Positions 16,998 to 50,351 of a stretch of 64,000 bases of DNA are shown one piece after another. The DNA is from Marsupella aquatica. Its lineage: Eukaryota; Plantae; Marchantiophyta. The notes beneath the pieces are model-generated. The model was not told the origin of the DNA. It worked only from the letters and a program-made list of their open reading frames with translations, and did not search any database. The DNA lies in the NCBI GenBank assembly GCA_973895155.1, contig OZ316895.1:16968170-17032169 (forward strand), written 5' to 3'. Numbering within the stretch: the stretch's first letter is position 1; each line of letters opens with the position of its first letter. The translations under genes were made by a program, and so were the position numbers.

Positions 16998-17580
16998 GAA
17001 TTCCTCAAGCCTTGTCTACTTTAAAAAAGTCACAATGTTTACCTTCAGCTACAGGGGATTCACATCTTTTTTAAATTGTTGCAGAGCTTCTGCCCCAGCT
17101 GCCCTTTTTTATGGTAAGTTGTACGACCTTGATTTAAGTATTGACAATGTTGATTATACACTAGGTTTAGCTTTGGTAGAGTGATCCAAATAACCCGGGT
17201 GGAAATGTGCAAACATTTATTGTTCTTTCTAGATCTTGTAACTCAAAGGTGATAGCTTCAGTTCATTTTGTTTGAATTGCAATTGAAATTTTCCCTATGT
17301 CTTGTGAATTTTGTATGTGCGTGCGTTCTTAATTGTATCCTTTAATTGCTTTTCTTGTTATGAAAACCTTGTTGTATTGTATTCCGCATCAGGTTAGCAG
17401 CTTATTTGGCCTCCCAAGGGGAGTTGTTGTTTGCTTTGCTTGTCACACTTGTCATTCTGCGATAAGGGGCTCAGGTGTGCATGGGCCCTCATTCTAAATC
17501 TTATCTTGCTGGATTTTGTTGCAAAAAGAGTTCCAAGGTAATACTATGTAGCCAATCATTACATTACTCTCAATTCAATT

Positions 17581-17907
17581 CACCGCGATTCCCAGTATCG
17601 ATGCACATTAATGCTCGATGTTGGACGGATTACACTCAGTGTTTACACTTTACATCCGATTAGTAGTTTGGGCAGTTGCGCTTGTTTTCGGGCAGCGTGT
17701 CCCTTAGCGCTTTGGTGCCTTGCAGCTGCTGTCCCGCGCCCTAAACCTGGTTGTCCCTAGTGCTGCGCCCGCCAAGTCCCTGCCCCCCATCTCGGGCCAA
17801 TTCAGCAGTGAACCGGCCAAGGCATCACCTCGCGGGCCGCTTCACACATTTTGCAAAGGATCACGAATCCACCCCATCAACGTATGTACATGGAAAAGAG
17901 GGTGTAC
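17581..17907 (+). repeat. MULE left TIR (interrupted at its inner end by the nested element)
   Basis: Reverse complement of 37803-38129; begins CACCGCGATTCCCAGTATCG. Confidence 0.93.
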
Positions 17908-18330
17908 GGCCAAAAGCAAGCTAGAGGGGGTATTATTTGATGTCACAAATGTCACATTTCAAATACCATAGAGGATGGTACTTGAAATGTACAAGGACCA
18001 AAAAGGACCATGGAAGGGCTCAGATGTATCTGAATGGGTGGCCAAGATTAGACAAGCATTACTGTGTAGCCCAAGAAGTAAAGGTGATGATTTCCTTGGT
18101 GTTGCCCTTCACTACCCACAGCCGACATTGTCACTTAAGGTACTAAGCTTAAGTAGTACTTTCTTGGAATTCAAATACCTCGTAACTCGTGTTGACCCTA
18201 TGGTTTGAACTCTATGCAAGTTCCCAAGTCCATTGTACATGGCGCGTTAGGTCGTGAGTCCTTCTACAAACATCGTTACGTGTCATATACTCGTGGACGC
18301 ACTACACCTGTAAGTTTTTCTTAATCTTGA

Positions 18331-18560
18331 GTAAGTTTTTCTTGAGGGAAACAAGCTGCCCCGACATTGCGATGCAGAAATTTGGTGGTACTCACGGATG
18401 CACTATACCAAGTAAGTTTTTCTTGCGAGAAACAAGCCCAAACATTGCGTATGTTGCAGAAATTTAGTGGTACTCACAGACGCACTATACTTGTAAGTTT
18501 TTCTTGCAAGAAACAAGCCCAGACATTGAGAGAAACAAGCGCGGACATCGCGTTGCAGAA
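18331..18560 (+). repeat. About 3 copies of an 81-bp tandem unit upstream of the Sola2-like transposase
   Basis: GTAAGTTTTTCTTG..GAAACAAGC starts at 18331, 18412 and 18493. Confidence 0.8.
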
Positions 18561-18873
18561 CTTTTGTGTTACCTTGTCCTTTTCGTGTTCGACATTCACC
18601 TTCTTTTGCTCCTGTTTGGAGCTTCAATGTTGCGTTTTGCGTCACATTGCCATGCATTGTGGTCTAAGGGATATTAAGGACTGTAAACATCTGACCTCGT
18701 AGCGAATGTTCCTTACTCTGCGACAGGAAGCTGCGGCATTACTCTACATTTAGACCTTCATTACTCTGTGGCATTACTCTATGTTTAGGAGAACAAACAT
18801 TGTAGCTCAAGGGCGGTTGAAGTAGGGTGAATCTCTACCCTCACACATGATCTCATGGTGTTAACCCAACATC

Positions 18874-21800
18874 ATGAGTAGTGTTTGGGATGAAGCAGCG
18901 AAAGCCAAAAGAGACCGACGAAATTTTAAGAGAAGAGAGCGTAGGGCAGGGCAAGCAGTGAATGCAGTAAGAACACATGCCAAAGAAACTTTACAAGATG
19001 CTCAGGGGCAGGCAGAGAAGCTGGTGATTCAGGAGGCTGCCATAGAGGCCGAGAAGTTGCTTGCTAAGGCTAGACACAAGGCTGCAATAGAGGTAGAGCA
19101 GTTGATTGCTCAAGCTAGACACAAGGCTACCATAGAGGCGGAGAAGCTGCTTGTTCAGGCTGGACGAGAGGCTGCAATAGAGGCAGAGAAGCTGCTTGCT
19201 AATGCAAGAGAGCAGGCTGACAACTTCAAGGATGAAATTCGGCTACAATTGGCTGGGGAGTTTGCAACTTTGGAATACCAAATTCATGACTTGCAGAATC
19301 AAACTATTGATTTGGAGTCCAGGTTGAGATCAGCGGAGGAGTGCAGTGCAAATGATCAGTCTTTTGGAGATGCAACAGGGGTGGCAACTCAAGAGGCTAT
19401 GCGTGCATCAGCTAGAAGGAGACAACAAAAGTCTCGTTTGAGGAAGCGGTGTCTACTTGGTGAGGTAATCGAGAATTATGATGCCTCTGATATCCCAAAC
19501 AGAAGTGTCCGTAGCCAGACCCAAGTTGTCACTGGGATGGTAAAGCACTTTTCCGAATTAACAAGACGACATAATTTTGCTGCTAAGAAGATCATCATGG
19601 AGCGTTTCTGGACTCATAAGGGAATGGTTCAATTGCACCCCACTTCACTAGGCTGCCCTAAAGCGGATCTGTCATGGAGTATAGCTATCGATGATATAAA
19701 GAACACTTTGAAAACAGTCAAGTATGCAAGGCGTAAAGATCATAAAGCAGCCAAAGATATTCTACTATCTTCTTTTATAGGTCCCAAGATTGTGGATGCA
19801 AGATACCAATCTTCTCTTGCTCGAGCATTGTGTATCAAAAGAGCATCTATGTATGCTGCTAGTAAGAAAAGAATTCTGCTAGATGGTGATGCAACACTGC
19901 GTTTTCCAATGGGTCAGCGAAAGGAAAGGAGTGATCGCCTTTCTCTGGAGATTCGAGGTGATGTTGCGTGGTTCTGGGAGGCGCTTACCAGGCCTGATCC
20001 AGGCAAGAAGGATTTTGTACGAAAAAGGATTGCAAAGAATGAATATGTGGAGCACAGGACTCACCGCCTTGAGGATACTGAGGTAATTGCTAATTATGTA
20101 GTAGTGCATCTCATTTCTAATCGTGTAGTAAGTTTGCAAGTGTAGTAGTGCAAGTCTGTAATCAATATTGGTTTATTTTGTGCACTACTCATTTTGTTCA
20201 CTTATGTTGCACATGGTGACAGGTAGAGTATTTTTTCAAGTTCCAGGAATGGCTGAAGAAAGAACATAAAGCTTACACTATCGGTTTGCGATCTTTTCAA
20301 GCCCTCAAACCTTACTTCATACGTACAATGAAAGATAGGGATGTCTGCTGTTGTAAGCAACATGTTGAGATGCACCTACTTTGCAAAGCCTTTGCCAAGC
20401 AACGACAAGCTCAACATCCTGTGGGTTGCACATGTCAATGTGTAGTTTGTTCCCCTATAATTGTTGCTGGAGTGAGTCATAGTATTGATGGTATTGTTGT
20501 CGACGGTACTTGCAGTACCACTACTCATGTGAGTCTGAATAGTTATGATGAACCCTGCAAAGCTCACAAGTATACACAATGCTCTGTGAGAGAGTGGTGC
20601 GCACAGACCTTATGTAAGAAAGGAGAGGATGATCTTTGGCACAAGAGGGACTGTTTACTAGGTAGTTGTGAGATCTGTGGGCCAGGGTTGTTAGAGTTGT
20701 GTCCGTGGGAGGAAAGAGTGGATGAAGAGGATGAGTTTGTGGTGTGGCAAACATATGAGTATGTTAACCTGGATGATTTACCAAAGCCAAAGAGTGCCAA
20801 AAAGAAGAAAGTCCAGAATCGTGATGATGCAGAGATTTCCAAGGTTAGAAAGAGGCTTAGATTAGTAACTAAAGTCACCTCAATGGTGGTGTTTATGGAA
20901 AAAGTAACAGCTACTATAGAAACGTTTATAAAACATGACTTCTATGCTAGATGGCAAGCTGAGCAGTACCAGAATTGTCTCAAGTCCTTTCCTAAAGGCA
21001 CCGTAGTGAGTTCGATTGACTTTGCAGAGAACTACACGTTTGCAACGCAAGATGAGGTACAATCCCTTCACTGGGATAATAGACAGGTCACTATTCTTGT
21101 TCTGATCACCTACCGGCACCAGTATGACAAGGAGGAGGAGGATCCTGTGGTGTACAACAAAATGGGCCAGAGGATCACCAGATTTATTGAGGCTGATTAC
21201 CACTTCTTTATTTCAGATGACAATAGCCATGATACCTTCTTTGTGCAACACAGCTTGGATTTCCATTGGAAGTGGATGAAAGAGAAAGAGATTTTTGTAG
21301 ACAATCACATTATGTGGTCAGACGGGTGTGCAGCACAGTTTAAAGCTTGCCGCCCTTTTTCCTATGTGGCAAAATACAATCATGACTATGGGGTCCCACT
21401 AATGTGGTGTTTCCATGCCTCGGGGCATGGGAAAGGTGTACAAGTAATTACTTGCCAGACCCTTTTTTTGCTTCATTGTCTATAGTATGTAATAGTGTTA
21501 CATTTTTACGTGCTGATTTATGCGATAGCTTTGAAGTTTTTAGCGTGCAGGATTTGATGCATTTTTGTTGTATGCTTGCTTCCACAGGATGGACTAGGAG
21601 GTGGGGTGAAGCAAGCTCTTTGAAAGGAGCAGTTGCGGAAAGAAGGAGGGCATCCAATGGAGGGTGCCAAGGATGTGGTCGAGTTTCTTAAGGAGCGGTT
21701 TTGCCTAGGAAAGCAAATGGAGTATGACAAGAAGCAGGGTGTGAGGCGTTTTTTCTGGGAGGTCGGTGTGCAAGAGGTGGAGCGGAGTTCAGGCCTAGAA

Positions 21801-22605
21801 TGTTTGCCTATCAAAGGTGTGAGACAAAAGCATTGCTTTTTGGGATATAGCCCTGACAATCCCATGATGCTGAAATGTAGAGAATTGGCTTGCTTCTGCA
21901 TCAACTGTGCACTTCATCCAGAAAGTCAAGAACTCTGTGAAAATCAGGCTCATGTTCTACCGTGGGAGGTAGATTATGTGTACCCCAAAAATGCTGGAGA
22001 GATTGCATCCATTATTGAAGACATGTGTGGCGGGTTGGATAGTGAGACCTGTGATTACGAGGGCTACATTGGTGATCTAGTTGAAGTGGGTGACTATTTT
22101 GCTGTGAAGGCTGAAGAAGACAACATTTGGAAAGTAGAATTCTACGTTCTTTTGTGTACAAAAAAGGCTCATGTTGTTGAAAATGATTTCATAGACGACT
22201 ATTCCGCTGAATTTTATAAGGGCGATCGAGTTTTGGCAGGCACTTGGTTTCAGCAATATGGCAGGCATTCGACTTGCTTTGTTCGTAACGACAAATCTAG
22301 CATTAGCTATGCCGATGTGGCATCCGTGATTCATATAAAATTTGGACTTGTGCCAACAAAAATACTGAGGGGATCACCAGGGTTCAAGCTTGCCCCTAAC
22401 ACTTATCAAGCAATTTTGGATTCAGCGGACAGGTAATTTTCTTTCACTGCCAATATTTATCTGTTTATTGAAGACACTAAAGACACTCATTGGAAGAGAA
22501 TAGTTACATTGGGTAGATTGTTGGTTGTGCTGGTTTAATTCTAATTGCAACTTTATTGACTGCAGAGGAAATCCGAGTGTGGTTGAATTGAACCTGTACT
22601 CCTAA
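18874..22605 (+). pseudogene. Sola2-like transposase (exons 18874-20082, 20223-21443, 21588-22432, 22566-22605) with one premature stop
   Basis: Motifs DFAENY..QDEVQSLHW..QVT, FISDD..HD, WSDGCAAQFK and HASGHGKGVQ|DGLGG match Sola2-type DDD cores as recalled. Cys-rich CCCKQH and CxCxxC regions. In-frame TGA at 21621-21623 (likely CGA>TGA). Exon 1 has four 15-aa coiled-coil repeats (AAIEAEKLLA..). Confidence 0.8.
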
Positions 22606-22869
22606 AGTTCTAGGTAAGCAAATTAAAAGCGCAGATGCTAATGTTTTATGAGGTGGTCGTCCTCACTTGATGTTGGTCCCTCAATCTCAAAACTCTGTGA
22701 AAAGGCACTTTGTGACATTCTTGTACACTGATTCATGTCTTTGACCAATCTAGTTTATTGTGTGCAGGTGTTCAATTTGATGACTGCGCAATGCACATGG
22801 CCCATGATTCTCAGTGGCAAGTAAACTTGCAACTCCTCCTTACCGAATACTAGTTCTTCTTTGTAATAC

Positions 22870-23370
22870 CTATTGCTAATACTTGTAATATTTATTTGCT
22901 AATACTTAATGCCTTTTCTAGTACCTACTTGATAATAAATACTCATAGTACCTAGTACATAATACTTAGTCAAGTATTAAATACCTTAAGTACCAGTACT
23001 GGTTACGTATGTACCAAGTACTCAGTACCATAAGTACGCAGTACCAACTTAAGTACCTTAAGTACCAAATACTCAGTACTTTGAGTACCTAGTACTCAAT
23101 ACATAATACCAAGTACCTAAGTAAGTACCTAGTACTCAGTACCTTAAGTACATAGTACCTTGAGTACATAGTACCAAGTACCAATAAGTACCCAGTACTC
23201 AGTACCTTAAGTACCCAGTACTCAGTACCTTAAGTACCTAGTACTCAGTACCCTGAGTATCAAGTACTTAGTACCTTGAGTACCTAGTACTTAATACCGA
23301 GCTCAATACGTTGAGTACCTGGTACTCAAGACCTGGCTTTAGTACTCAGTACTTGCAGTCCGACCCAATA
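22870..23370. repeat. GTAC/AGTACT-rich degenerate repeat array in a predicted 3'-UTR intron (22821-23508)
   Basis: About 40 GTAC tetramers in about 430 bp (manual count), in units such as CTCAGTACCTTAAGTACC. Confidence 0.85.
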
Positions 23371-24783
23371 CTCAATACTATAGCCTAGGCTAATAGTTTT
23401 ATACAGTTGAGTGTTTGATGTAGTGGGTGTTGTGAGACTAGTAGCTATATTGCAAAAGCAAGCCACTGATACATTTTAACTGCTGGACCTGTCTCTTTTT
23501 TCATGCAGGTGATATAATAAGTCTCTCTTTGTTGCCTAGAGGCACGACAATCACTACCCTTGTTTGGCTAGATATGGATATAATTTATCATAAATTTTAG
23601 TCATGTGAGTTGTGGCTAGCGAATTAGCTAGTTGAGTAGTGGCCACAGGACCATTGTGTATTCGTTCAGCAGCATTTTGTGATCATGCTTCTGTTTCAGA
23701 ATAAGCTTGAAACGCAATTTGAACCTTGTCTATCAAATCTATAAAAGTTCTCATCAAATGCCAATGGATGTCCATATTCTTCTCTGTTGCCTTCCTGGAC
23801 CTCTGGTGCAACTTTAATTATCTCAATTCGGTGATCACCTTAGTCTGTTCCTCTTGTTCGGTGTAGTGCCTTAGTTCCCAGAACTTTGCAAAGGGAAGCA
23901 AATTTTAGCTCTCAACCTCCATCCAGATCTTATTTTACCCCCATGCATGTTATAGCATACTTTTGAGATCTGCCTTAGTTTGATTTCTTTATTTCAATCA
24001 TCAAAGGAGGAGCATGATTGTTTCACAGTACCAGTATGTACACTCATTCAGTTTTTTCCTGAGTGTACATACTGAGATCACTATGAGCATCAATGGCATT
24101 TTCTATTCCAAGGCAAATGATTGCTATGAAGGGATCACTTTCTAAGGTTTCTCACAATAACTAATTGCGCTAACATCTACATTATGATCCAAACAACAAC
24201 CTGGATATAGGTCGAAAGCTTGGCATTGTTGAAGGCCAACATTTTGGACTATAAACAAAAATTAAACTCATTCATTGTTTCTTCATAAACACGAGTCACA
24301 AACACTTGCTCAGTTTATTTACAGTGCAAGTCCTGTTGCTTTCAATAGTAAATTATGCAATACCATGCGGATTACAAAATTGACTGTAACAAATCCATGT
24401 AATCCATTGAACTGTTTGGCCTGTAGAATTCAGTTCACTTTTCCGCGATTAAAAAAACTACTCTAGCAATTGTCAAGTAGGCAACTCTATTTCTCTATAG
24501 TTTCCAATACATCAAGATTTGTACAAAATGAGACATCTTGTAGTCACTCAATTTATTTATGCAAGCTAGACTTTAGCTTTGTACAGTAAATCAAGTACTC
24601 ACAGGATACAAGATTGATTGATTGTAACTAATCCAAGCAGAGATAGAAAGAACCACACTAAACTGTTGGGGCCTGTAGAAAATCCTGGCCACAAGATCCG
24701 TATGCAAAAACACTACTGCAAAAATTGCAGCTCTATATATGTCTCTACAATTCCCAAAACATTCTCCTCAGATCACCTCATTC

Positions 24784-25407
24784 CTAATCTAAACCTTGAT
24801 GGCGAAGTGCGACTAAAATACCCTCCAATTGGTCCAAAAGGAGAGATCCTCTTGGTACGAGGGATCGTTCCACATTGGTGGACCTTGGGTGGGATCTAGA
24901 AACTGTCACAGTGAGAGGCCAGGGGACCCAACTATGGGTAGGAACCCCAAGGAGAGACAAAATTTCCACTGATAGTACCCCATCTTTTGCAGCCAAGGCC
25001 ACTAAGCACCTTCGACACTGCAAGGCAACAGCCCGGATGTAGTCCATCTGCTCCTATTCGGTGCAAGCTCGTAGGTCTGAAGCTCCTAGCCCCAACCAGA
25101 CTGAAGCGCTATCCCGAATCTCAGCACGAATGGGGGTTGCCTGCTTAAACACCGCATCAACAATCACAACTTCAAAACCATATGTATCAACACCCTCCCC
25201 TGCATGGCCACACACCTGCCGGCCGAGCTCCTTTGATGTGCCACAAATGCCTCCATGTCCTAGCCGATGTGAGCATGCTTTATAAATAAAGCGCCGAGGA
25301 TGGGGGAAGGTTGAATGAAAGTTCACAATATGAACCACGACATCTCGAAATGAAGCAGACTGCCCTGCTTCCACGACCTGCTCAACTTTTGTTACAGGAG
25401 TCCCCAT
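24784..25407 (-). pseudogene. RPA1 C-terminal-like OB-fold/Zn-ribbon protein (Sola2-like cargo), one in-frame stop
   Basis: VHIVNF..FIYKACSH..ICGTS..VCGH..YGFEVVIVD..IRAEIRDSASVWLGLGASDL resembles the Rep_fac-A_C pattern. TAG at 25054-25056, then the same frame continues EQMDYIRAVALQCRRCLV..GVLSVE. Acceptor TTTTGCAG at about 25428. Confidence 0.65.
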
Positions 25408-25539
25408 TCTTCTGCGTCAACAAGATCCTGCAAAACTACAAGTCCAATACTCAAATCAATACTCAAGGATTCCCGATGGATATTCAATGACAAAACCTTG
25501 CTTGCACTACCACAACATGACACACAATCCTCAAGGGAT

Positions 25540-25950
25540 TACACTACTACTCAAAGGTATTGAACTAATACTCGCAGGAATTTGAAACAATACTCAAACG
25601 CGTAACTTACATAATACTCAAAGGTATTTACATAATACTACAAGGTATTTACATAATACTACACGGTATTGTGACAATACTACAAGGTATTGTCACAATA
25701 CTACAAGGTATTATGATAATAATACACGGTATTGTGATAATACTCAATGGTATTATGATAATACTCAATGGTATTGAGATAAAACTCAACGGTATTGAGA
25801 TAATAGTACTTGAGGTATTATGAAAATACCAGGAATTGACTAACACCTGAAACTCTTACAGTAATACCTTATTGTATTAGACTAATACCCGAAGGTACTA
25901 AACTAATACTTAGTATTAGAGTAACAATCACAGGTACCAGGTAAATACTC
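25540..25950. repeat. 21-bp tandem repeat (AATACTACAAGGTATTGTGAC-like) in the predicted intron upstream of the OB-fold ORF
   Basis: AATACT(A/C)..GGTATT units at 21-bp spacing across about 25610-25820, with degenerate flanks. Confidence 0.85.
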
Positions 25951-26242
25951 TGTGACATGAAAGCACAGCCAGAGAAATTACCTGAGTCTGGTAGTGCATG
26001 TAAAGTGAGTATTCAAATCTATATAATATGCATGTATGAAGTGAGTGAACCCTAAACCAAATAAACCTGTGACAATACATAGAAATTGACTGGTACAAAG
26101 GATGAGCAATAGGAGAGTAAGAAAATTTACCATCGATGCATCCACATTGGGTATCTAGACAGACATCTAGGGTTCATGAATGCTCAGAGGCAGACGACAA
26201 TGTCAACATAGTAGTCCTATTTAAATTACCCAGCCTCACCTA

Positions 26243-29097
26243 TTACAATTTCCTAGCTGATCCACGACCTCTTCCTCGTCCTTTGACAGGTGGTTTAACC
26301 TTTTCAACTGACTTTAAGGCAACATTACCACCCTTGTCATGAGCAGGATCCAATCCTAGACTGATAGCAGCACCCCTTAACTTCCCCTTAGCTTGAGAGG
26401 AGCTTGTGCCATTCTTCTCCTCGGCCTTTCGCTTTTTGCTACTCCCCTTACAAGACTCAGAGCCAGGCTCAGAGTCATTAGAGACATTCTCCACCTGAGT
26501 GACCGAACCAGGTTCTGGAGCAGCACCCTTTTTGACCTTCACAATTGAGAGATTCACCTCACCCTTGGACTCCGGGGCTGAAGTCTGCATTTGAACTAGA
26601 GTAGGAACTGACTTGATGTCAACTTTTGAGACCCTCAACAACTCATGGTGTACATGTGCAGCTTTACCAACAGCCTCATGATATTCGATAGACTTCTTCA
26701 CACTTTCCTGCAGCGCAAAACAATATCCCACAATTAGCAATTGACCAATATCCCCGCTAATACCAATGTACGACAAAGCCAGATCATACTATGCCAACAA
26801 CTCGAGTGACCAGGTTTAGTGATATACCTTTGAATATAACTTGGTCACTTTCTTATGCTTCAAGGCTTGATTCTCCCTCCTTCCCTTTAAATTCAAGGCA
26901 TTCTTGCAATACAGATCACTAAGGCTCTTTTGAAAAGAGATAGATTGTTCTTCCAAACCCCAATCATCTGCTAGCTTCACTACATCTGGATGGTCCACTC
27001 GGGATGAACCCCAGCACTTCAGCCAGGCTGGATGAAACACTTCAGCACAGGCTAAACACTTAGGAGGTTTATTGTCACCGTTTCGAAGCAACGGGAACAA
27101 ACAACTTGGATGATAGCAATGTCCACATGATGTGGGAATCCAATTGTTACAAAAGAAGCCAAGAGAGCAAACAGGGCATTCGCTTATGGGAAAATAAGCC
27201 TCCTCTGTCTGCGCAGGACAAATGATACTAATAGGGCATACATAAATTGCATGAGAGGTATTCAAGTGCTCCTTTAGTCTTGCGCACTCTAGATTGAGAG
27301 CATCATAGGACTTTGTCAATTTGTATGCTGTATGATCTAGCTTGTGCAAGGTCTGTTTCCCATACTCCTGTTCCTCATCCAACTTATTCAACTCTTTCAT
27401 AAGAACTTGAGCATCTGCGACTACATCAATGCGCTTCTGCTTTGAAGCAGCCAAGTTTGCTTGTAGTATATTTGTTTCATTGCAACACGAGACATATTTT
27501 TCTCGCAACCCTTTGCAAAGTGCTTGCACAAGTCCCGGCCAACACAACAGGATTGTTATAAGCAACTGAAAATCACATTCAACAAAGATAATATGAAAAC
27601 AAATGTAGCTTTAAACAAAATGAGATCATTTACCTCGTCTTCAGAATGCTCTTCGTCAGGATCTTGCAGCAGTTCAAGATCCTCAGATACTTGAGCTTGC
27701 TCTTTGACCTGAGCATGGATGCGTCGCTGTACGTCGTGGATGATATTAGTGAGTTCATTCTTTTGCACTTTCAACGTTGACAATGTCGTTTGAATTGAGT
27801 TGATTCGATCAGTAGCCTCATTCTGAGCTGCTGTGAATTGAATGGCATCTTGTGTAGACTTCTGCATTTCAGGGCCAAGCTCTGCAAGACTAGCCTCCAC
27901 TACCTCCAACATTGTTTCAAGAAGTGTATTCTTCTGGTGTGGAACTGGCGTGCCAGTAGTGACTCCAGTGCAAAGTTTTTTGGTTTGAGCTTCTGGAAAA
28001 CCTATGAAACTATTTTCTGGTGACATTTCATGATTCGGACCACCTACCTGAGAAAGGGACTCACCTTGCTCTTGCTCATTTGCCTCTAGTCCTAACACCG
28101 TACCTGGAGATATTGTATCTTGCTGCAATTGGTTCATGTTTTGCAGGAAGTTTTGACTACTCGAATGAGGACCCGAGGCTTCGGGTGACTTGAGCTCTAG
28201 GTTTGCCGGTTTCTCCTCCCCAGGTGATTCACAATGTGCTCCACTCGCAACGGACTGTATTCTATTGAAGAGGTCTAGAGGAGGGATATACTTTGTCTCA
28301 ATCCTCTTCCACGGTGGCGAGTTTCTATCGATTGGAGACTTCCTTACAAACCTCAACCGAAGCTGCCCTCTATGCTTGTCTGCACCACAAGCTGCCCAAT
28401 TCACAGGTCTTTTTAAGATCCGCTCATAGTACAAACCTTTGGCAACCTCCACAGTGTATGGTTGAAACTTTCCGATTCCGTCCAGCACACAGGTAAGCAT
28501 GGCGATGTCGTCGACAGGAATCCCCTTAACGCCATCCTTCTTGTAGCCGTTCTTCCCAGACTTGTTCCCAAAATACTCCTCCAACACCTCAGCGGACACG
28601 TCTTCATTTGTGAGCTCCTTCGGAATGCTTCCCACATTGGGCAAGCCAAGGACATTGTGGAAATGATCGATGTCCTTCACAAACTCATCAACTGTCCACT
28701 CTTCTGATGAGGGGACCTTTACAAGACTCTCACCGTGTGATTTCGGTGGTAGCTTGTGACTCGTGGACTTTCCAGGCATTTCAGAAGACATACCTGCTGT
28801 GTAGCTTGAGTTCTCCCAGCTGCTCGCTCCAAGCGTTGGCAACAAACTATTTGGGCGCAAACCTGCGCTATGCGACTCCGCCCGAGTCCCTTGAAAGCAC
28901 GTTACTCCAGAGTCTGACTCGTCCCTTCCAGTGCCTTGCGCCTGAATTACAACACAAGAATGTGAGTTCAATGTCATCTTATTTGAAAAGATTGAATGTG
29001 TGCCTAATGCGTGGCCTAGATCATAGAAGACATTCAATATTAAACAAGTGGGGAAGAAAACAATCAGAGCAACTTTCCGAATGTCCTCAACTTTCAA
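26243..29097 (-). CDS. Sola2-like accessory protein: PMD-like N-terminus, coiled coil, RING finger, basic C-terminus (multi-exon; start uncertain)
   Basis: Long ORFs 27556-29097, 26816-27565 and 26243-26776 joined by plausible splice sites. RING: CPVC..PTSCGHCYHPSC..CLAC. Motifs VLGLPNVG..VNWA; heptad-rich segment; C-terminal KGRGRGRG. The acceptor near 27535 looks mutated, so it may be a pseudogene. Confidence 0.7.
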
Positions 29098-29904
29098 AAT
29101 TGTAGCTCAGGTCTTGTAACTCTTCAATCTCCACAACGCAAACGAGAATGCAAAAAGTTCTAGAGATTCAAATGCTTGCAGCCCTCGACTAAAAGCAACT
29201 TCCTGCGCCAAAATGCAATGTCATTCCCTCCCGCATTCCCTCCCCTGCTACCTAATCAAGGATCACAATGTTGCGGTCTTCTCCAACTGGCACATTGCGC
29301 AACATTCAAACTGGAGTACGCATCGTGAAAGTTGATTCAACGCGACAAAAAGGAAATAGAAAGGAAGTGCGCACTTTGCGCCCAGGTCTCCCTTGATTGC
29401 AGGCAATGCTACGGTTTGGATCATCCTTCTAGCAGGAAGGGTCAAGATCCAACAATGCTACTCCCTCAACCACCACCATTGATCTTCATTGCCACCACGG
29501 CACGGTCCGGATTTGCTGACCTTTCTAATTTTGAAATGATAGAGGTTACGGTAGTAATGTCTTTTCGGCCCTTCCTCCCTCCAACGTGATTGTACTTGCA
29601 ACAACCTCCTCCCTCATCATTACATGACTTGTAGTACTAACTATACTATGAGCTTTGTTGTAGGGGTGGTATTAGGAGGGGTATTATTTTGCTCAAATTA
29701 GACCCCCTCTAGCTTGCTTTTGGCCGTACACTCTTGTGAATTGACGTTTTGCATGTAGGCCAGGCCATCGCATTCCCGCCCTCAGTTTTTGTGACCTATT
29801 GCATTTCACACTTTGCCACTCGTGAGTTGCACAGCCGACATTCCATTCCCTCGTGATGCGCATCGGTAAGCACTATTTGCTTTTGGTAATTTACTTTCAT
29901 TGAG

Positions 29905-30921
29905 ATGATTGTGTGGTTTATGACTTATGCAACTCTGCTGCAATATGCTGCAGAGATTGAAAAAAACCCGGCTGATCGTGAGTCCGATTCGGAGTCGTTT
30001 AGCCCTTCATTTGGTAAGCCAATGTCAATGACAACTCTGTTCGATGTGCAAGAAGCTGTAATGAGGGAGGACACTGGTTATTTGGGACCATGTAATGTCC
30101 ACGTATTGAACTTCATTGCCACGAATCCTTTCCCCAAGAAATTTGTGTATCGAGGATGTACTGAGGTCATTTCCCGAGGTCATTTCCTGAGGTCTATGTA
30201 AGATTTCAATTGAAGGCCTGAGAGGAAGTCATTGCGAGCATGATGCTTTACGGAGTGGACAGTACCGTGAGTTTTTTCATTTTGAGGTATTGTTGACGGA
30301 TGCTACCTTGCACTGTAATTCTGGCAAGCCTAGCTGCTTTGAGAGCTACAATTTGGGATGCTGCAAGAGATTTAGTCGATCTCTCTACAACTGCACTAGC
30401 TTGTATGGAACACACTTGATCAATTTCAGGTCCTCCATGATTCCATCAAGGACGCGCCATAGTGCAAAGTCAGGTTTTGGATAAATCATGGTATTTTATC
30501 TGTGCATGAGTTGGAGATTGTTGCATCAAATAGTACGTTGCCACAATCTCGTTTATGGACCCAGACACGGACTCCACAACGACAGGGGTTGCAAGGTACA
30601 CACCTATCGCCCAGCCCACGCGCTTCCACTGAGGGAGGCACCCAATCTGTTGCTACCCAATTCTACAGCACTCCAACTATGATTGTGCCCGTAGTCTCAT
30701 CCCCTGCCCCACCAATGCCAAGACAGTCACCAATAATTGATTCAAAGCCAGATTACACCACAGCTACTTCGAGTGTCGGACAAGTCTCAGACGTGGTACA
30801 GGCCGAACGCAACAATCATGGCAACGAAGAGGTCCAGCAGGGCACCATGTCATCCATTGTTCGTCGACTAACAGAAGCTTTCAGTTCATCATTGGACGTC
30901 TACTCTGGAAGGAACCGATAG
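29905..30921 (+). pseudogene. RPA1 C-terminal-like OB-fold/Zn-ribbon protein (MULE cargo), frameshifted
   Basis: Stitched frames read VHVLNF..KKFVYRGCTE..LCKIS..HCEH..FHFEVLLTDA..LRATIWDAARDLVDLS..DQFQVL..*CKVRFWINHGILSVHELE, followed by a Pro/Ser/Thr-rich tail. Colinear with 24784-25407. Confidence 0.6.
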
Positions 30922-31669
30922 TTTATATTACTGTAGGCTAATTAACATACATACATGTAGCCATTTGGCTTTTGCAAGTAGACTTGCCCAACTTACCGTG
31001 TTGCAATTGTATGCAATATGGCAAACTGATGGACGCCTGGTTCATTCACTATGTATGAGGATGGAAGGAAAGCAAAGTTTGCATTTTGAAGCAAGTTAAT
31101 GAGTGTCTCGTCCTTACATCTGAATGTGTTGCGTACATGATTCTGTCAATCATATTTGACCGTCGGTATGAAGTCCACTATATGGTGTTCAGTGTCGAGT
31201 GCCCTCTTATGCTGCGGCCGACAATTTCATGGTGTTGACTCACCATCATGTATTGAGGCCATGAAATCATCTATTCTCTGGGTATTCATAGAATTTCACA
31301 AATGGTGATATATATTGTCTTGCAATAATTTGGTTGACTCAAATCTTACGAATGAATTGCAACATACAGTGTAACTCCATGATAGCCCTTGCCCAACTAT
31401 AAGGTAATTAAGTTTCCCGCTGTGATTCATTAAACTATTCATATTTTCATTGTAGGTCTGAAGACATAATGCCGCGAACAAGGGCCCAGGTACTCACAAA
31501 TCCTTCATCATATCTTCTTTCAAACCTGGTTAATTAGCTCATGAATAGTAAATCATTCAGAGATTACAGTAATTAAATGAGGTTAGTGTAATTCAATTTA
31601 GGTTAGGGTCATTATGAACACTCACATTCTGTCACCTTTTCAATTTAGGCTGGTAAGAAAAGGCAGGCT

Positions 31670-33412
31670 ATGTGGGAACCGACTCTGCTCCACCGTCGAT
31701 TGCCACAACCCACATGTGGTGAAGCATCTCATGGGGATTCGGATGTGCAAGTCATGGCAGCACCGCCTACCTCTGACTTGTCTCCCATTCTGCCTATGCA
31801 AGGGTCCCCTATGCCAACTCTGGTTGTTGCTGTAGCAGCACCCGACTGTTGTGGGGATGGATTAACCAAGGCCTCCTCGACCATGCCTGGACCTCAACGG
31901 AGGGTCACTCTGGACCCACCACCTCCAAATCAGGATGAGTCATCTCAACCCATGGCTCTATTCTTGTCATACAAGAACCAATCTAACACTATAGCACTGG
32001 GGACCCAGCCCACGCAAGTGACTGATCTTTCCTCACTGCGGTATTTGGAGCCACAATCACAAGTCACATGCGAAGCTAAAGAGGGAGTTCATTTCTCTCG
32101 CAACGGCGGTGGCGCTGTGTGCAACATGTTGCCTTGTAAAAATTTACATTTCAAAAACCGTCGCACATACGGCTGTCAAGTTTTCAAGAAGCATGGTCTG
32201 GTCGTTGGAGGGACTCCCCGATCACTATATACACCAGACATTCTTCACGCCCCGAGGCAAAAGCGACCTGGACTGCAGTCCTTGCCAAATCACGTTGACG
32301 TGAGGGGAAGACTGAGACAAAGGTGGAGCATGGCAAAAAGAATCGTCAAGTACGTACAAGTGTCCACAATTGCGTGCAACTTTCTAAACTTCGCAAACTG
32401 AATTGTTTTGACTCCAACAAAATGCTTGTGGTGCAGGGCAATGACTCACACGAAGTTCGTCAAAAAATTTGAAGACAATCGCTCCACAAATCCCCACCAA
32501 CGGTTCCATGTCAGCTATGTTTATAATGTTCTTTGAGTTCATAATGCCAAGACTTGGCTTCCAAGTGTGGAACAGTCTTGTCAACGACCATGATTGGGAG
32601 TGCTTGCAGGCCTTGCTTTCACATTGCCCACATTCATCAACTGTATGGTCATGGACTACCTCTGCTTTGTCTCATATGGAAGATACTTCTTACGCGCACT
32701 TAGACGAGTTCCAACTTGGAAGACTCAGCCAAACAACTACAGTCATGAGGACTTTCTTTGAGCCAAGGCAGGCCGGATTTGATTGTCATTTGATTGATTA
32801 TGCCATGATGCAGTCCCGCAAACATATGTGTGATGATGCACTGAATTGGATGCAAGCCAAGCGTGACAGTCTTCTTTGGGATCAGGAACACGGGTGGGGA
32901 ATTTTTCAGACTATGGGGGACAAGGACTACAAGGTGTGGAAAGCAAATCATAAGCCACAGGTCATTCAGAGTTACGTACCCAACATGGTGGCCATGTACA
33001 AGAAAGTGCACTCTTGTACCCATGATTTTGCAATGCAGCAGGTAAGTTTTGCATTGCACACGAGGCTTAGAACATTTGTCACAATGTTAACTACAAGGAT
33101 TATGCTACTCATATTTTGACTTAGTTTGTGGCCCACTTATATACTTCAGTCGCTTTGTAATGCAAATTTGCCCAAGTGCAGGTTGAAATGGAGGCTATGT
33201 GGACTGACACCTCAGATGAGGAGCGACTTTCTGAGTCTGATGTTGAGGAGAAGGATAGTCAGCTGTGCCTAGACGAAGATGCCCATGAGTTGTTTGGAAA
33301 TTTGGGCCGCAGGGAAGTAGTTGCCCCGGCTCCGTGTACACATGCCCTGGCTCCCTCGGTGGATGGCTCTGAAAATGACTCACATAATATAGACGACACC
33401 ATCTCACCCTAA
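31670..33412 (+). CDS. MULE cargo gene of unknown function (multi-exon, possibly pseudogene)
   Basis: Consecutive ORFs 31670-32401, 32469-33119 and 33176-33412; donor CAG|GTAAGT at about 33041 and acceptor GTGCAG at about 33181; acidic tail. No recognised domain. Confidence 0.45.
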
Positions 33413-33828: not shown

Positions 33829-36800
33829 CTATTCATCACCGATCGATACTATGTGGTTATCTACATGCACTGTTGAATGAACGTCCATGCTCACTCCGGA
33901 CGAGAAGGCATGTAAAATATCTGGGAAAGATGGCGACATAGCCCACGTCTGGCTATTGCCTATGTGGACATTTCCAAGAATGTCCATGTTGGCCTCCGTT
34001 ACAAGTGCTTTAAGAATGCCTGATTTACCTGCTTGCGAGAGAGCGCTGCTTATTGGTAATGCTGGCGCTGCTCGGTTTTTTTTGTCTTCCCTGCCTTTGA
34101 TGCCGTGGGCTTCTTACATTTACCATTTACCGGGGTATTGCTGTGATCTGTAATTGCTTCGCACATCTCAACCAGCGCTTCTATTGATTCCATGTCAAAT
34201 TTTGCTTGGAATGATAGAGCCTTCTCCTTTTGTTTGACCTGTAGCTTCTCTGGGATGTTGGTCCCACGCACCAAATCTTGCAGGTCCTCCTTACCGTGCG
34301 GATGTACATTTTCCTTGTTGTTATTGTCAATGTCGAGTTTCCCCTTGCGCTTGCGCCGACCCTTGGCAGCCATCATTTTGTCTACCGAACTGCATTTGGG
34401 GACGGTGGTTCTATCTGTACCCTCACGTGGAGTCAGCTCTTCATGCTTCGACTGTGGGTCTAGCATGGCAACATTTTGTTGTGCCTCTCTTACAAAAAGC
34501 GACTCCATCCAATGCTTCAACTCAATCAAGCCTTGTTTGGCAAGGGTTGGGTGATATGAGATTCACTTGTAACATGCCGATAGCACTACTTGGTAGTCTT
34601 CCAAGGGCGGTGAACACATGAATTGCCTGGGAAGCCTCTTCCTCTGGTGCCTCCCACATATCCTTGCCAACATATGTGAGGGTGATGTTCGCAACCTCAG
34701 TCACCAATTTCGGGGCTTCCCCATGGGCTACATTGAAATGTGCGTAAAGCCCACTAGAGAATGATCCCATTTTGGTTCCCAATTGATGGAGAACTTCCAT
34801 CTTAGTCATCTTCTGTGTGACCAACAATACTTTGATCTGCACATAATAACATAGCGGAATGTTACGAATAGAATAGAAATGCCTTTCATGCAAAAAACAG
34901 TTCGTCATTGCTTCTCAAGAACAGGCAACAGTGGAATTGTAATAACCTGGTGCTTGCAAGCGTTTCCTTGTAGTGAATAGCCACATGTACACTGACAACT
35001 GTCTTTGTCCCAGTCAGTTACGAGGTGTTCCTTAATTAGTGCCTGGATTGTTTGAGGAGGTGCTACGAACGCATGCACATTGCGCCAGCCCACAGTCAAA
35101 TGTTTGGACGTAATCATCAGGGATTGCTTTGGCTCTATTCAGGGACTTATGCACAAGCTGCTCGATTGTTTTGTTCCTTATGTGACCCTGAAATTTTTCG
35201 GCAGCAATACACCAATAGTGATTCTCCAGCACTCTCAGACGACCAAGTAACCATGGTATGGACCGACCTGTTATGCTGTACCTACCCGCCTTGAGCTCCA
35301 TCTTCAGGGTGTGGTGCCAACGTTCGATGCCCCCGTTTGTATTCTGGTTGGCATGATGGTACCCTCTTAACTTGACTGCCCAACTACAAACCTTGGAGTG
35401 CCACTCTCGTTTGTAGTATGCCACAAAAATGGGTTGGGTGTCAACCCACCGATCCATGAAGGCTTCCAACTCTTCTGTCATATTTGTCAAGAGTCACAGA
35501 TTAGCACTATAGACAAACGTGATATACATTATTTATTCCATATGCAGGACCTGCACCACTTTGACAAATAAACAAACTCACCAGTCCCCTCGGAATACAT
35601 TATTGCTCCCAAATGTGCATTGATCTGGGCTTTGGCAAATGGGCAGAAGACTTTTGTGATTATGTTTTTAGTCCAGGCTCGTCTGACATGCCATGTGCAA
35701 AATGTAATGGGTACTTCCGGAAATACCTGTCTATACACACGAAAAATAATTCACATAGTATTTGTCAAAGATGCTGCAGACAGTGCAAATATGTTTACAG
35801 ACCACATTGATTGAAAACATGCATTGTCTATACTTGATAGCTGCTTGTTCCTCATCCGCTACATCAATAATCCAACAGGTAGGAGTCCAAGGAATATTGA
35901 GATTCAGTTCTGCTCTCCTAGCATTGACACAATCTTTCAAAGCCATCAATATTTGGCTGACTTGCAGGGCTTTATATGTTTGTAGCAGCGCAAATGCTAC
36001 CGGAATGGCATTTTGGAACTTGTCAAACACAACGGCCGTGTAGAATAAGAACTGCAATGAATTACATAGAACTTGGTAAGCAGAGGTCTAGCATTACATA
36101 CTCATATTTGAATATAATATGTGACCAACATTTGGCAAGATTTGTTTGGGCAAAAAGAGGTTGGAGAGTGTGATCCTTACACCAAAGTGATTGGTGCCAA
36201 AAGTTGCATCAAATGCCACTGGTCCTCCATGACCAAGTTGGGCAAGCTTCTTCTGCTGCCAAGGAGACGACCACATGAGAATGAAAGGCTGGTTTTCCCC
36301 TTTCATTTGTGGCTGGTATAACAAGACTTGGTCATTGTTTTGAAGGACCCACAATTTGATAGCTTGTGCTTCGTCAGAGCAATAATCTGGTTGGCGACGT
36401 CGCATAGAATCCCGAACTGTTTGCACATCTCGTGGAGTGAGCTGCATATCCCTAGACATGATGACATCAGCATCCTCGTCCGGGTGGTCTTTACGCCATC
36501 TTGTAAGAATCTCTTCAAACTGTGCATTCACAATTGCCCTTGCTGTCAAACCAGCCCTGAGGTAACGTTCTATTTAGGTTCGTAGCTTCAATGAAATTCT
36601 TGGGGCAATGTGTGCATTTGCTTCAAAGGCAGTGGAATCGTGTAGGCCATGGCAAACCAAATTTTGTCTGTCAAAATGATCTTTGCGGATCCATTTGATC
36701 AGAAGGGCCCCTGGACGATCCTCATACTTCGTAGAAGTAAATGAGCATCTGCAACCACGATGGATTGACATTCCTGATTGCATGCACAGAAAAACCCCAC

Positions 36801-37582
36801 TTGTTATACTAAATACTAAAACTCTGGATAAGGACATCTGTTGACAGAAATCACAAAACAGCCAATTTCCAATTCCAAAAATTGATTGAAGTCACCTGTT
36901 AGTGTTTTTTTCTTCAAAAAAACACCCGCCTCCTTGGATTTCAGTTTCTCAGGGACCTTGGTTGATTTCCAGCCTCGGTAATCCTCTGGACCAAAGCAAC
37001 AACAATACAAGGTTGTGGTCTTCACCAAAGGGCCCATTTTGTACAATCGGTTCTGTACCATGTGTCGAGTTGAGAATTCAGTATGGAAATTGTCTCTCAT
37101 GTTCTCACCCCATATAAAATCTGTAAGCCTACCCTCAGGAATCCAAGCATAATCATTTGTTGATCCAAACCACTCGATATCAGTGTATTCAAATTTTCCA
37201 GGAGGAGGGATCTGAATTCTATCGCATCTGGAGACTGTACAATGGCTTCTGCGTATGGGTGGGCTTTTTGTGGAAGGGAATCCGGCGCAAAATCTCCTTC
37301 CTCCTTGAAATTGAGGTCACGCACATGCTGTGAGATGCCATCGAGCGCATCTGCTACAGGCACCGATGTAGTCACCTGCAATTCATCAACGCCTTTCTCT
37401 GCACTGTGTACTTCCAGAAATTCCTTCCTATTGTCAAATGCTGACATCCTTTGTTGCAAAAAAGCACCTAACATCGGAAGAGGGCCCCCAGGGTGGGGTG
37501 AACTGGGAGCATCGCACATGGCTTGCCAGTAATCAAGTTTAGACATGACACCTGCCAAATCCAAATCCGAGTATCGATGCAC
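33829..37582 (-). pseudogene. MULE DDE transposase with SWIM zinc finger (At4g13970/At1g60560-like), decayed
   Basis: DFIWGE, YCCCFGPED, RGCRCSF..H..CHG..APRIS, AFDATFGTN (D), IIDVADEE (D), FCTWHVRRAW (CxxH), TNGGIERWHHTLK (E), SWIM CTCGYSLQGNACKH. In-frame TAA at 36574-36576; frameshifts near 37110 and 35035. Confidence 0.88.
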
Positions 37583-37799
37583 ATTTGCACGAGGTTACTG
37601 CACGTCACACAATCATACACGAACTCAATGTAAATTGTAGTGAGAAAACAATTCCATTCCTGAGTCTATTGTGCCAGAGAAATGTGCGAGGGCCTTACAT
37701 TCTGTCGATGCAATGATTTAGGGTCCGCTGTAGACTACACACGCGCCCTCGCAATCCCGCTATGGTATTCTCATTTGAAACAGTATTCCAAAATTTGAA

Positions 37800-38129
37800 A
37801 GTGTACACCCTATTTTCCATGTACATACATTGATGGGGTGGATTCGTGATCCTTTGCAAAATGTGTGAAGCGGCCCGCGAGGCAATGCCTTGGCCGGTTC
37901 ACTGCTAAATTGGCCCAAGACGGGGGGCAGGGACTTGGCAGGCGCAGCACTAGGGACAGCCAGGTTTAGGGCGCGGGACAGCAGCTGCAAGGCACCAAAG
38001 TGCTAAGGGACACACTGCCCGAAAACAAGCGCAACTGCCCAAACTACTAATCGGATGTAAAGTGTAAACACTGAGCGTAATCCGTCTAGCATCGAGCATT
38101 AATGTGCATCGATACTGGGAATCGCGGTG
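37800..38129 (-). repeat. MULE right TIR
   Basis: Inverted copy of 17581-17907 plus 29730-29732. Confidence 0.93.
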
Positions 38130-39517
38130 AATTCAATTCAGGTGTCCATGGGCGATGTTTATTGCTCGCAGTACTTAAAGCTCCTCAGAAAACAACAAAA
38201 TGAACTACCTACATTATTATTTGCACTTTTGTTTTTAAGATAGTTTGATCGTTCTCTAGTACATACAATGTATAGCTCCCAATCTGCTGTCATGTACCGC
38301 TGGAGTGTGCCAGGCATAGACTTCATTGCATTTGTGGTGGGGAATCCGAGCCACTACTCTCCCTAACTAATCGTTGAGGTGAAAGGGCGATTGGTCTTTA
38401 TATCTTCCTTTGATGGAGTTTGAATATAGAAAAATGCCCAAAACTTGCATTATCTTTGGATCACTGATATACCAATTGAGGGTTTTGGGATTTCTTTGCA
38501 TATCCTAAAGCATTTTGACAAAATCTGGTTGTGCTAGCAAAGCTCTTGTTCTAGGGTCTGTCTGAATCTTTGCCCACACCTCAGGGCCCTGAAAAATATT
38601 GGCAAATGGCAACCCCTGGCCCTTATAGGCGGTCCTTTGGCTTTGACAGTGGCCGCCTCAGCCCCTTATATTGTCTGCCCTTTGAGCCACTGATCAACTG
38701 AGTTGTTCGGTTGCCTGAGCTCCTGTGTTTGCTGAGTTGTAGTTGGGCAGGACCTGCAAGAGTTGCGATCGAGGAGGAGATAAAGGTAGGGAGAACCATG
38801 CATGTTTTCTTGCCTTCATGATCCATCCCATTTTTTTGTGGCTTCAAATGAGGCTTACTTAGCCATATTAAGTGACGGACATTTATGTTGTTGTCTCTCT
38901 TGCCCGAGTCCCTGTTAGTTGGAGTCATTACATCCCTAGATTTTGTACACCTTGGCCATCCTTTGTTTTTCTTCTTGCTTGTCCTGGATTTTTGCATCTT
39001 GGATCTACCTGCATAATGCAATTTGCAATGTGTCTTTGTAATTTCTGGTCGTTGCTTTGTATGGCACAGTCATTTTGGATTTTGTTTGAACCTGGTATTA
39101 CCTATGCTGGAGGCGTTATCGGGTCTTAGGTCCACTCACAATGATTTTAGACCACACCTGAGCTGTTGGATTGTTTTTCATCTTTGTTGGCGTGGGATTC
39201 ACATACATTATATAACGTTGAATGAATAGACTATCATTTATGTCTGGTCATAGTTCAATTTTTATATTTCCTTATACTTTGCTTATTGTGGACTATTGGG
39301 CAATAGATTCATTTCCTCTACATGAACATTCATCCAATTGGAGGTGAACATGAGGTGAACATTGGAGCTGCAAAGACCTGCAAGGTGAGTTATGACAATG
39401 TTTGTGGTTCAAGGTGAGCTTCATTTTTGGTTTGTTCTTTTGTAGTCCTGAGTTTTCTGTTGTATGTTGTTTAGGGTTGGGTCTGCCTTGGCCTTAAGTA
39501 AATATACAATACACCTG

Positions 39518-40249: not shown

Positions 40250-40615
40250 TTATGACCAATCACCCAATGACAGAGATGAATAAATGACCAAAAGTTTTAA
40301 TGACACAAAAAGAATGACGGGGAATGACTATCCACAATGACCAATAGACTGAAATGACAAAATGTTAATTTTTTTGTCATTTTGTATAATGTCTATAATG
40401 ACTGATGCGACCAAAATGACCCAATTTCCCTAAATGGTCAATTTAGACACATGTCTTAAATGACACAATTAATAACAACAATGATAAATCAGTGTTTAGC
40501 AACATTATAGTCACTCTGGACAATGACTGAAATGACCAAAAATCTATTTGCATCATTTTGGACAACGGTGATAAATGACAAAAAATGTATTATCGTCATT
40601 TTAACCAACGGTGTT
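40250..40615. repeat. CACTA left subterminal repeats (AATGAC/GTCATT)
   Basis: Many copies of the hexamer in both orientations. Confidence 0.85.
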
Positions 40616-41135
40616 AAATGACAAAATTTAGGGTCAATCTGAAAATGAGAATATATCAGTGTTTACAACAACATATTGTCATTATGGACTTATGCCATAA
40701 ATGACTAACTCTAGGGTCAATCTTGAAATTAGGACATATTAGTGTTTACAAGAACATACCGTCATTATGGACTTCTCTCATAAATGACAAAATTTAGGGT
40801 CAATCTGAAAATGAGAATATATCAGTGTTTACAACAACATATTGTCATTATGGACTTCTGCCATAAATGACTAACTCTAGGGTCAATCTTGAAATTAGGA
40901 CATATCAGTGTTTACAAGAACATACCGTCATTATGGACTTTTCTCATAAATGACTAACTCCATAGTCAATCTTGAAATTAGGATATATCGGTGTTTTCAA
41001 CAACATACTATCCTTATGGACTTGTCGCATAAATGACTAAATATAGGGTTAATCTAAAAATCAGGATATATCAATGTTTACAATAACATACAGTCATTAT
41101 GGACTTATTACATAAATGACTACTTATAGAGTCAT
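40616..41135. repeat. 83-bp tandem repeat x6, organised as an A/B 166-bp dimer
   Basis: GGGTCAATCT-like anchors at 40631, 40714, 40797, 40880, 40963 and 41046; alternating variants. Confidence 0.9.
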
Positions 41136-41199
41136 TAAAGAACCCAAGAGATATGAAGATTAAAATACTCAATAGTCATTCCAGACACCTATCATAATT

Positions 41200-49754: not shown

Positions 49755-50351
49755 TTGAGGCTGGATCGAACACAAACTTGAGATAGAGCTTTTTGATGGT
49801 TTCACGTGGACTTAAACAATTTTCAAAGTGCTAAAACATGTGGACTATTTATATGCAGTTTGATGAACTCCTCATGTATACACACTCTACGACAGTGCAT
49901 TGCGGATTGAGGCAATTAATTTTGAGAAATCAACTTTATTATCTTTTCCAGGGTAGGATTCTGATTTTCAAGCATGTACTTTGAGTGTGACTTTCCTCCA
50001 TATTGATGTCTAAACTTCACTTGTAAATTTGTCACTGGTGTCACAAACATTACTTATTCCAGACCTGTCTGCTCACATTCCTAATAGGCAAACAAATACT
50101 GGAAATGATGAAGGCACAGAGATTTACGTTCATAGTATCATTCTGATGACACTGTATGTGATGCTCTATTTGTATGCAAGGAGAAGGTGCCCTACTACAG
50201 TGGATTTGAGAAACTGGGCTCTGTGGGTTTGAGCAATTGGACTGTGGTTGGCATCGGTTGTACAACTGTGACGGTAGGCCCAATTTTGTATGCATGTCAC
50301 TCTGATTCAGTTTGAAAATCATAGTTTGAATACAATTTCAATCAAGCTAGC

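Follow-up and report, generated by a model that had tools for sequence, protein, structure and literature searches.

A Predicted OB-Fold Accessory Family Carried by a Sola2-Type Transposon and the MULE Around It in Marsupella aquatica

Two Homologous Genes in Nested Transposons

The stretch analyzed here, 64,000 nucleotides of the liverwort Marsupella aquatica (contig OZ316895.1, positions 16,968,170 to 17,032,169; hereafter, the window), holds two nested DNA transposons, each with an accessory gene of the same protein family. The outer one, a Mutator-like element (MULE), spans 17581-38129; the inner one, a Sola2-type element of 11.8 kb, occupies 17908-29725, at the inner edge of the left MULE terminal inverted repeat (TIR). 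Gene A belongs to the inner element and gene B to the outer; the two are homologous, and each lies inside the TIRs and target site duplications (TSDs) of its own element. The genes and the limits of their carriers are as follows, in window positions:

24784..25407, minus strand: gene A, 207 codons, with a stop at 25054-25056 in the window copy
30022..30921, plus strand: gene B, homologous to A, its linker longer and its C-terminal motif constrained, from frameshift-aware alignment
17572..17580, no strand: left TSD of the outer MULE, 9 bp, AATTCAATT, same letters as 38130-38138
38130..38138, no strand: right TSD of the outer MULE, 9 bp, copy of the left TSD
17581..17907, plus strand: left TIR of the outer MULE, 327 bp, 14 mismatches against the right TIR, with the Sola2-type insertion at its inner edge
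37803..38129, minus strand: right TIR of the outer MULE, the 327-bp partner of the left TIR
17904..17907, no strand: left TSD of the Sola2-type element, GTAC, repeated at 29726-29729
29726..29729, no strand: right TSD of the Sola2-type element, GTAC, copy of 17904-17907
17908..17940, plus strand: left TIR of the Sola2-type element, 33 bp long and identical over the first 24
29693..29725, minus strand: right TIR of the Sola2-type element, pairing with the left TIR

A frameshift-aware alignment of A with the B region scores 95, against 31.1±3.2 (maximum 39) for 40 shuffles of A, and is thus significant; the protein blocks that an initial annotation of this DNA had matched between the two genes are all present and colinear. 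B is the sole other match of A in the window at E<1 by tblastn (5.6e-5), and tblastx of the Sola2-type element against the MULE returns the A/B pair only (E 2e-5). Core identity is 42/155 (27%) between A and B and 44/155 between B and P0002, a Logan protein (cluster of 3) with an open frame 70% identical to A; 40 columns are invariant among the three. A and B have the same start position and the same unusual zinc spacing, and their tails do not align with each other. A six-frame search of the window, CACTA-type elements included, finds no third member of the family.

At the DNA level, blastn of the Sola2-type element against the MULE finds no similarity (best E 1.4), which rules out a recent local duplication, as the initial annotation had already concluded. 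With similarity confined to protein, the split between A and B must be far older than the nested insertion. The MULE holds no second Sola2 terminus, and this speaks against B as a leftover of the same family. Because the Sola2-type element is nested in the MULE, the two carriers are not independent loci, and the sharing of this new accessory family across superfamilies rests on one nested pair. Of the earlier proposal of a mobile module shared among cut-and-paste transposons, the homology and the two superfamily assignments are supported; general movement among such elements would go beyond this one pair, no homologue with a known context having been found.

The origin of the pair bears two readings, either of which is compatible with any function. 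Under separate capture, A and B would each have come from a lineage-specific host gene or a Helitron RPA-like family, with no exchange between superfamilies: the low identity and the lack of DNA similarity allow a very old split, and Helitron groups are described as having captured RPA independently (PMC11417382; articles are cited by PMC number). Against separate capture, word-based searches, which miss distant relatives, return no named host protein, and each gene has its own ATG, at a shared start position, which favors transfer of a ready-made gene. Separate capture is thus a possible but doubtful origin.

Predicted Fold and Zinc Site

Pfam and PDB sequence searches with A, the B pieces and P0002 give no match to a family, the PDB results being at chance level only, and none of these sequences reaches the Pfam cut-off of Rep_fac-A_C. 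A profile of the three-member family does match Rep_fac-A_C, represented by 35 archaeal/Asgard domains (from 36 loci, the weakest dropped): hhalign gives a score of 36.8, P 3.4e-5 and a probability of 72% over 72 columns, a span that opens with the first zinc ligand and reaches the helix following the third strand. Controls score lower: 110 column shuffles give 13.1±2.5 (maximum 24.6), 110 shuffles with the invariant Cys/His fixed reach at most 20.3, reversing the profile gives 14.7, and the same RPA proteins score 16.7 in their upstream part. The blocks aligned with RPA70-C are Y-x-x-C, V-x-I-x-D and I-R-A-x-I.

Untargeted structure comparison leads to the same class of domains. With an AlphaFold model built from the family sequences alone, the top Foldseek match is the Teb1 OB-C domain (3u50, E 0.0097, prob 0.95), and RPA70-C entries follow at E 0.04-0.09 (1l1o, E 0.046) among other OB folds. 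VIA-align, run against 48,161 chains, also places 3u50 first (Z 6.5, rmsd 5.2, 111 aligned), followed by Cdc13 6lbt (Z 6.4, rmsd 3.9, 108 aligned); its first ten comprise Teb1, Cdc13, three RPA70 entries, CTC1, RADX, Cdc13 OB2 and Pot1, all of them OB domains. A viral fold library yields nothing below E 0.04.

Several points weigh against an RPA70-C-type fold. The Rep_fac-A_C template was picked by hypothesis, the Cys/His-masked profile scores 17.8, and single sequences miss the RPA-C profile, 13-22 of 300 shuffles scoring as high at a probability of 1-2%. The AlphaFold model is of low confidence (pLDDT 45.6, pTM 0.36), and a full-length single-sequence model (pLDDT 32) gave no OB match. No Foldseek E value falls below 0.001, and all VIA-align Z scores are below 8, in a class that the tool calls common. 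Cdc13 OB2 and Pot1-C, among the top matches, are mainly protein-binding domains.

That an untargeted search by structure and a targeted test by profile agree makes the case for an OB fold, which the family very probably adopts. An OB barrel with a zinc-ribbon insertion of the RPA70-C type is probable, being predicted by three concordant tests, each weak alone. The comparison with Rep_fac-A_C and with known structures that the initial annotation had called for thus came out in favor of its reading, with low model confidence.

The putative zinc site sets the family apart from RPA1. Its ligands are invariant as C, C, C, H, spaced C-x8/9-C-x10/11-C-x-H, and the RPA1 motif is C-x2-C-x13-C-x2-C, in a protein that holds DBD-F, A, B and C in one chain (PMC4731521). 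Neither the four domains nor this motif is found in A/B, which are stand-alone proteins of 207-293 residues that lack DBD-F, A and B, have a long linker before the tail and are transposon-borne. With an atypical zinc site and a domain that stands alone, A/B are not RPA1 genes; judged by their sequences, they resemble RPA70-C and not RPA1 subunits. Of the DBD-C pattern assigned by the initial annotation, the OB fold of the RPA70-C type is supported and the RPA1 zinc motif is absent; the last ligand pair, read there as C-x-x-H, is C-x-H.

Intact Copies and Selection

Gene A encodes a predicted OB fold with a zinc ribbon (residues ~1-160), a variable linker of 26 residues and a predicted C-terminal helix. 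An in-frame stop directly precedes its ATG, which leaves one domain read from its own start, and a splice-acceptor-like sequence lies 20 nt upstream, from which a 5' intron is inferred. The stop at 25054-25056 is the single lesion of the window copy; in contigs of the public runs X1, X2 and X4 (3 contigs each) the site is a sense codon at full depth, and X5 hardly covers it. Similarity between P0002 and A begins at the ATG of A and is uneven, with identities of 127/159 (core), 7/26 (linker) and 13/21 (tail). X2 loose ends, read by eye, code for a P0002-like peptide. Word-based protein searches, which distant relatives escape, found P0002 only, then P0002 and a fragment, P0005; a metagenome scan with P0002 gave 538 pattern matches, 0 of them confirmed. 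Selection on A is well supported.

Gene B, placed at 29905-30540 by the initial annotation, most likely starts at 30022/30028 and ends at 30921, with a linker of ~100 residues before the tail. Its window copy carries three +1 frameshifts (~30176-30188, 30330 and 30412-30415) and one stop (30460-30462). Contigs free of the 13-nt duplication, of the 4-nt insertion and of the 1-nt insertion each occur in 4/4 runs, and the stop site is a sense codon in 3/4. These lesion-free contigs are separate and short; other contigs match the window lesions, and a 14-nt gap interrupts one contig of X2. At the end of B, 7 of 10 codons differ synonymously and 2 are replaced. Some X1 and X3 contigs match B only in separated blocks (30165-30838 and 30050-30494), one of them inside a contig of 4.6 kb, which suggests B subfamilies of greater divergence. 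No link between B-type relatives and a MULE transposase could be made in other copies, and a word-based protein search with B in one reading frame, of the kind that distant relatives escape, gives 0 matches.

Of 28 codons in three 30-nt loose ends (of A before 25249, of B behind 30409 and 30890), hand-picked from 24 of 365 and 24 of 156 listed and compared by eye, 17 differ synonymously, 7 are replaced and 4 are identical. The sampled divergent copies thus appear to differ mostly at synonymous sites. Three observations pull the other way: these loose ends were self-selected from those listed; no single contig of the runs spans an intact B; and among the 40 of 125 B variants listed (5 upstream ones dropped), 10/35 coding differences are synonymous versus 22-24% expected. 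The transposase comparison among the variants listed gives 18/30 synonymous. Selection on B is moderately supported.

The initial annotation had itself named host RPA fragments in neutral decay as an alternative; A and B would then be pieces of RPA1 that ride along as Pack-MULE-like passengers. Both window copies are broken, and the small synonymous excess among the listed B variants suits such a passenger. The lesions are, however, absent from other copies, P0002 is open at 70% identity and shows the contrast between core and linker, the zinc spacing is unlike that of RPA1 yet common to A and B, and Pfam Rep_fac-A_C gives no match. Neutral decay of host fragments is accordingly very improbable. 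A and B are a real feature and likely functional, with a predicted fold.

A Possible Role at Excision Gaps

The reading that we tentatively favor is that A and B encode an accessory OB/zinc protein which may act on single-stranded DNA (ssDNA) at the excision gap and favor the repair that recopies the element. A cut-and-paste element gains a copy when its donor gap is refilled from the sister chromatid. The protein, translated from its own ATG, would coat resected DNA at the donor site or in the target gap. One such OB domain is expected to be a weak binder alone, so the C-terminal helix may serve to oligomerise or to dock on a partner. Refilling of the gap would then copy the element back at the donor site. 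The benefit, being independent of transposase chemistry, would explain retention by unrelated cut-and-paste elements, and A and B would be of one origin, having diverged long before the nested insertion. The zinc insertion of RPA70-C participates in ssDNA binding (PMC8881015).

The same domain could serve proteins rather than DNA. Mimicking the C-terminal domain of RPA1 or CTC1, it would bind RPA2/RPA3 or STN1/TEN1 of the host in the manner of an adaptor or decoy and alter repair choice or damp damage signaling, and DNA binding would not be needed. Only the C-type OB domain, the one for subunit interaction (PMC4731521), is retained; the top structure matches include Cdc13-Stn1, the RPA trimer core, CST and Pot1-Tpz1; and the C-terminal segment is constrained in both genes, as the tail and linker counts of A and the codons at the end of B indicate. 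The position of the predicted tail helix, however, after a 26-residue linker in A and one of ~100 residues in B, does not fit. In RPA70, the tail helix directly follows the barrel. The tails of A and B also fail to align. Such an adaptor, the chief alternative to the gap role, is rather unlikely.

Unrelated cut-and-paste plant elements might also trade a stand-alone RPA1-C mimic which, with host RPA2/RPA3 or STN1/TEN1, would form a transposon-specific alternative RPA and steer gap repair toward recopying of the element, so that conservative transposition would yield net amplification; this scheme is unlikely. Copy gain by cut-and-paste elements depends on the host refilling the donor site, and element-encoded control of this step is poorly known. 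An RPA-C-like gene under selection in two superfamilies would be a small, expressible candidate for such control, or for an RPA/CST decoy.

Limits and Other Genes of the Two Carriers

The assignment of the carriers to MULE and Sola2 by the initial annotation is supported by TSDs, TIRs and transposase motifs judged by eye. The 9-bp TSD of the outer element falls within the 8-11 bp given for MULE/MuDR (PMC6446971), and its 327-bp TIRs are long, as expected of a MULE. The inner element has the 4-bp TSD and short TIRs of Sola2, with 31/33 bp matching between its TIRs (2 matches in the window versus 0 expected by chance); its GTAC TSD is not AT-rich, and Sola2 elements described in PMC3627910 have AT-rich TSDs. 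The right MULE TIR, which is uninterrupted, has a single GTAC at the position matching the Sola2 insertion site. The target is near-palindromic (AGGGT GTAC ACTCT, 17899-17912 and 29721-29734), so the Sola2-type TIR seems 9 bp longer than it really is.

Loose ends with unlike flanks occur in contigs of the public runs at 17578 (n=11 in X1, 19 in X2 and 4 in X4) and, in 2 X1 contigs, behind 29725, and both ends are therefore multi-copy. Depth in X1 is 110-124 for the contigs, each with 1-4 differences, that tile 18.9-29.5 kb of the inner element, and 24-27 over gene B, contig depth not being equal to copy number. One of the public runs may itself derive from the source of the window. The flat depth across the inner element suggests that near-identical Sola2-type copies keep their accessory genes together as a unit.

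Between these limits lie the following features:

18330..18528, no strand: non-coding tandem array, ~81-bp unit, upstream of the Sola2-type transposase
18874..22436, plus strand: Sola2-type transposase gene, three inferred exons, from open reading frames (ORFs) and motifs by eye
22944..23378, no strand: non-coding AGTAC/TACTCA-rich tandem array, 23-bp unit, from repeat analysis
25548..25924, no strand: tandem array, 21-bp unit, within the 5' intron inferred for gene A
26243..29106, minus strand: second Sola2 accessory gene, RING-finger, three ORF pieces from the ORF list, splicing inferred
31649..33412, plus strand: second MULE accessory gene, ORF pieces from the ORF list
34900..37594, minus strand: MULE-type transposase, frameshifted in the window copy, motifs judged by eye

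The Sola2-type transposase has no Pfam match and none among the viral sequences scanned; its motifs DFAENY, QDEVQSLHW, ISDD..HD, SDGCAAQFK, HGKG and DG.GG..K follow, by eye and in order, the alignment in supplement S10 of PMC3627910. Under the inferred splice it holds an in-frame TGA (21621-21623), which is not among the 40 variants listed, so near-identical copies may share the stop and move in trans. A 45-bp tandem repeat (18874-19300), coding for an EAAIEAEKLLA-type helical repeat, opens the gene. The MULE transposase shows, by eye, FDATFGTN, PVAFALL, IIDVADEE, CTWH, TNGGIERWHHTLK and C-x-C-x7-C-x-H, which may be the MULE DDE, CxxH and SWIM-finger motifs; its separate pieces, split by introns and frameshifts, give no MULE or SWIM match in Pfam.

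Within the inner TIRs, gene A is found downstream of the RING gene and faces the Sola2-type transposase; gene B faces the MULE transposase and starts ~300 bp past the Sola2 insertion point. The RING gene encodes, in order, an N-terminal domain without family, a coiled coil and a RING finger whose matches lie under the Pfam cut-off (best E 0.008-0.03). Its N-terminus, near 28400-28720, presumably recalls a plant-mobile-domain (PMD)-like motif; a PMD-like origin was set aside, having no Pfam or PDB support. The second MULE accessory gene combines a Cys/His-rich stretch with a predicted helical part and has no credible Pfam match and no similarity to the RING gene.

All three non-coding arrays of the Sola2-type element share TACTCA/AATACT. 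On the minus strand, some of the 21-bp units contain TAGTATTAT, which agrees with YAGTATTAY, the VANC21 motif of Arabidopsis (PMC5735166); this may be a coincidence.

The arrays raise the possibility that the OB protein, like telomeric OB proteins, reads specific repeats and so marks its own element, either for anti-silencing or for assembly of the transpososome, much as VANC of VANDAL elements targets arrays (PMC5735166). The Sola2 arrays, upstream and downstream of the transposase and in the inferred intron of A, recall VANC targets in a layout similar to that of VANDAL (PMC5735166), TACTCA occurs 33 times in this element versus 3 in the MULE, and the best fold matches are telomeric proteins, of which POT1 and CTC1 bind sequence-specifically. 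Yet the MULE carries B without a comparable array, and VANC binds double-stranded motifs with a MAIN-like fold, dicot-specific (PMC13547354); A and B do not show a MAIN/PMD-like fold and are modeled as OB folds. The RING gene is, moreover, an alternative, candidate reader of the arrays. Array reading by A/B is quite unlikely.

Relation to Known Systems

A and B are like RPA70/RPA1 DBD-C, Teb1, Cdc13, CTC1, RADX and Pot1 in their predicted OB barrel, whose first strand is followed by a zinc-ribbon insertion. Among transposons, the nearest parallel is with Helitrons HLE1 and HLE2, in which RPA-like accessory domains are recurrent (PMC6431247, PMC11417382), as the initial annotation had noted. 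Like Helitrons, the carriers of A and B are DNA transposons that keep an RPA-related accessory domain; unlike them, they are cut-and-paste elements with TIRs and TSDs and have no rolling-circle ssDNA intermediate to explain the cargo. No family match to RepHel is found among the ORF pieces scanned, and A and B lie between TIRs with TSDs.

Fanzor1, carried by Sola2, MuDR and other superfamilies (PMC3627910), is likewise one accessory family spread across unrelated transposons. Fanzor is a TnpB-like nuclease, whereas A/B are predicted OB/zinc proteins in which no catalytic motif is seen. Extra ORFs are also familiar in MULEs, as here: MuDR and VANDAL elements carry mudrB, vanB and vanC (PMC6446971). 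The gene organization of the outer element resembles that of MuDR in another respect. In MuDR, mudrB faces the transposase from the opposite TIR, as B does.

The word RPA is absent from the available portions of PMC13547354, of PMC6446971 and of PMC13317346, a review of gene capture. The literature covered yielded no account of RPA/OB cargo in MULE, Sola or other cut-and-paste elements; subscription papers, Repbase reports and bioRxiv supplements lie outside that coverage and may mention such ORFs. The pair adds a family without Pfam or PDB sequence match to the short list of cross-superfamily accessory genes and documents a gene-rich, multi-copy Sola2-type element.

Other Features of the Window

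GT-AG-interrupted ORFs occur in the window, and together with CACTA content they mark it, by sequence, as eukaryotic and likely of land-plant origin. Two CACTA-type elements, at 49083-57300 (plus strand) and 62013-63927 (minus strand), carry no copy of the OB family; in the former, NSD-like PHD fingers lie upstream of a Transposase_21 ORF, and DUF4218 is present as well. Tandem arrays fill 41400-45300 (a unit of ~577 bp in 6-8 copies, each with an internal palindrome) and 40590-41170 (an 83-bp unit). A likely host gene at 5600-9550 on the minus strand has a weak PB1 match and presumably resembles plant PB1/TPR proteins.

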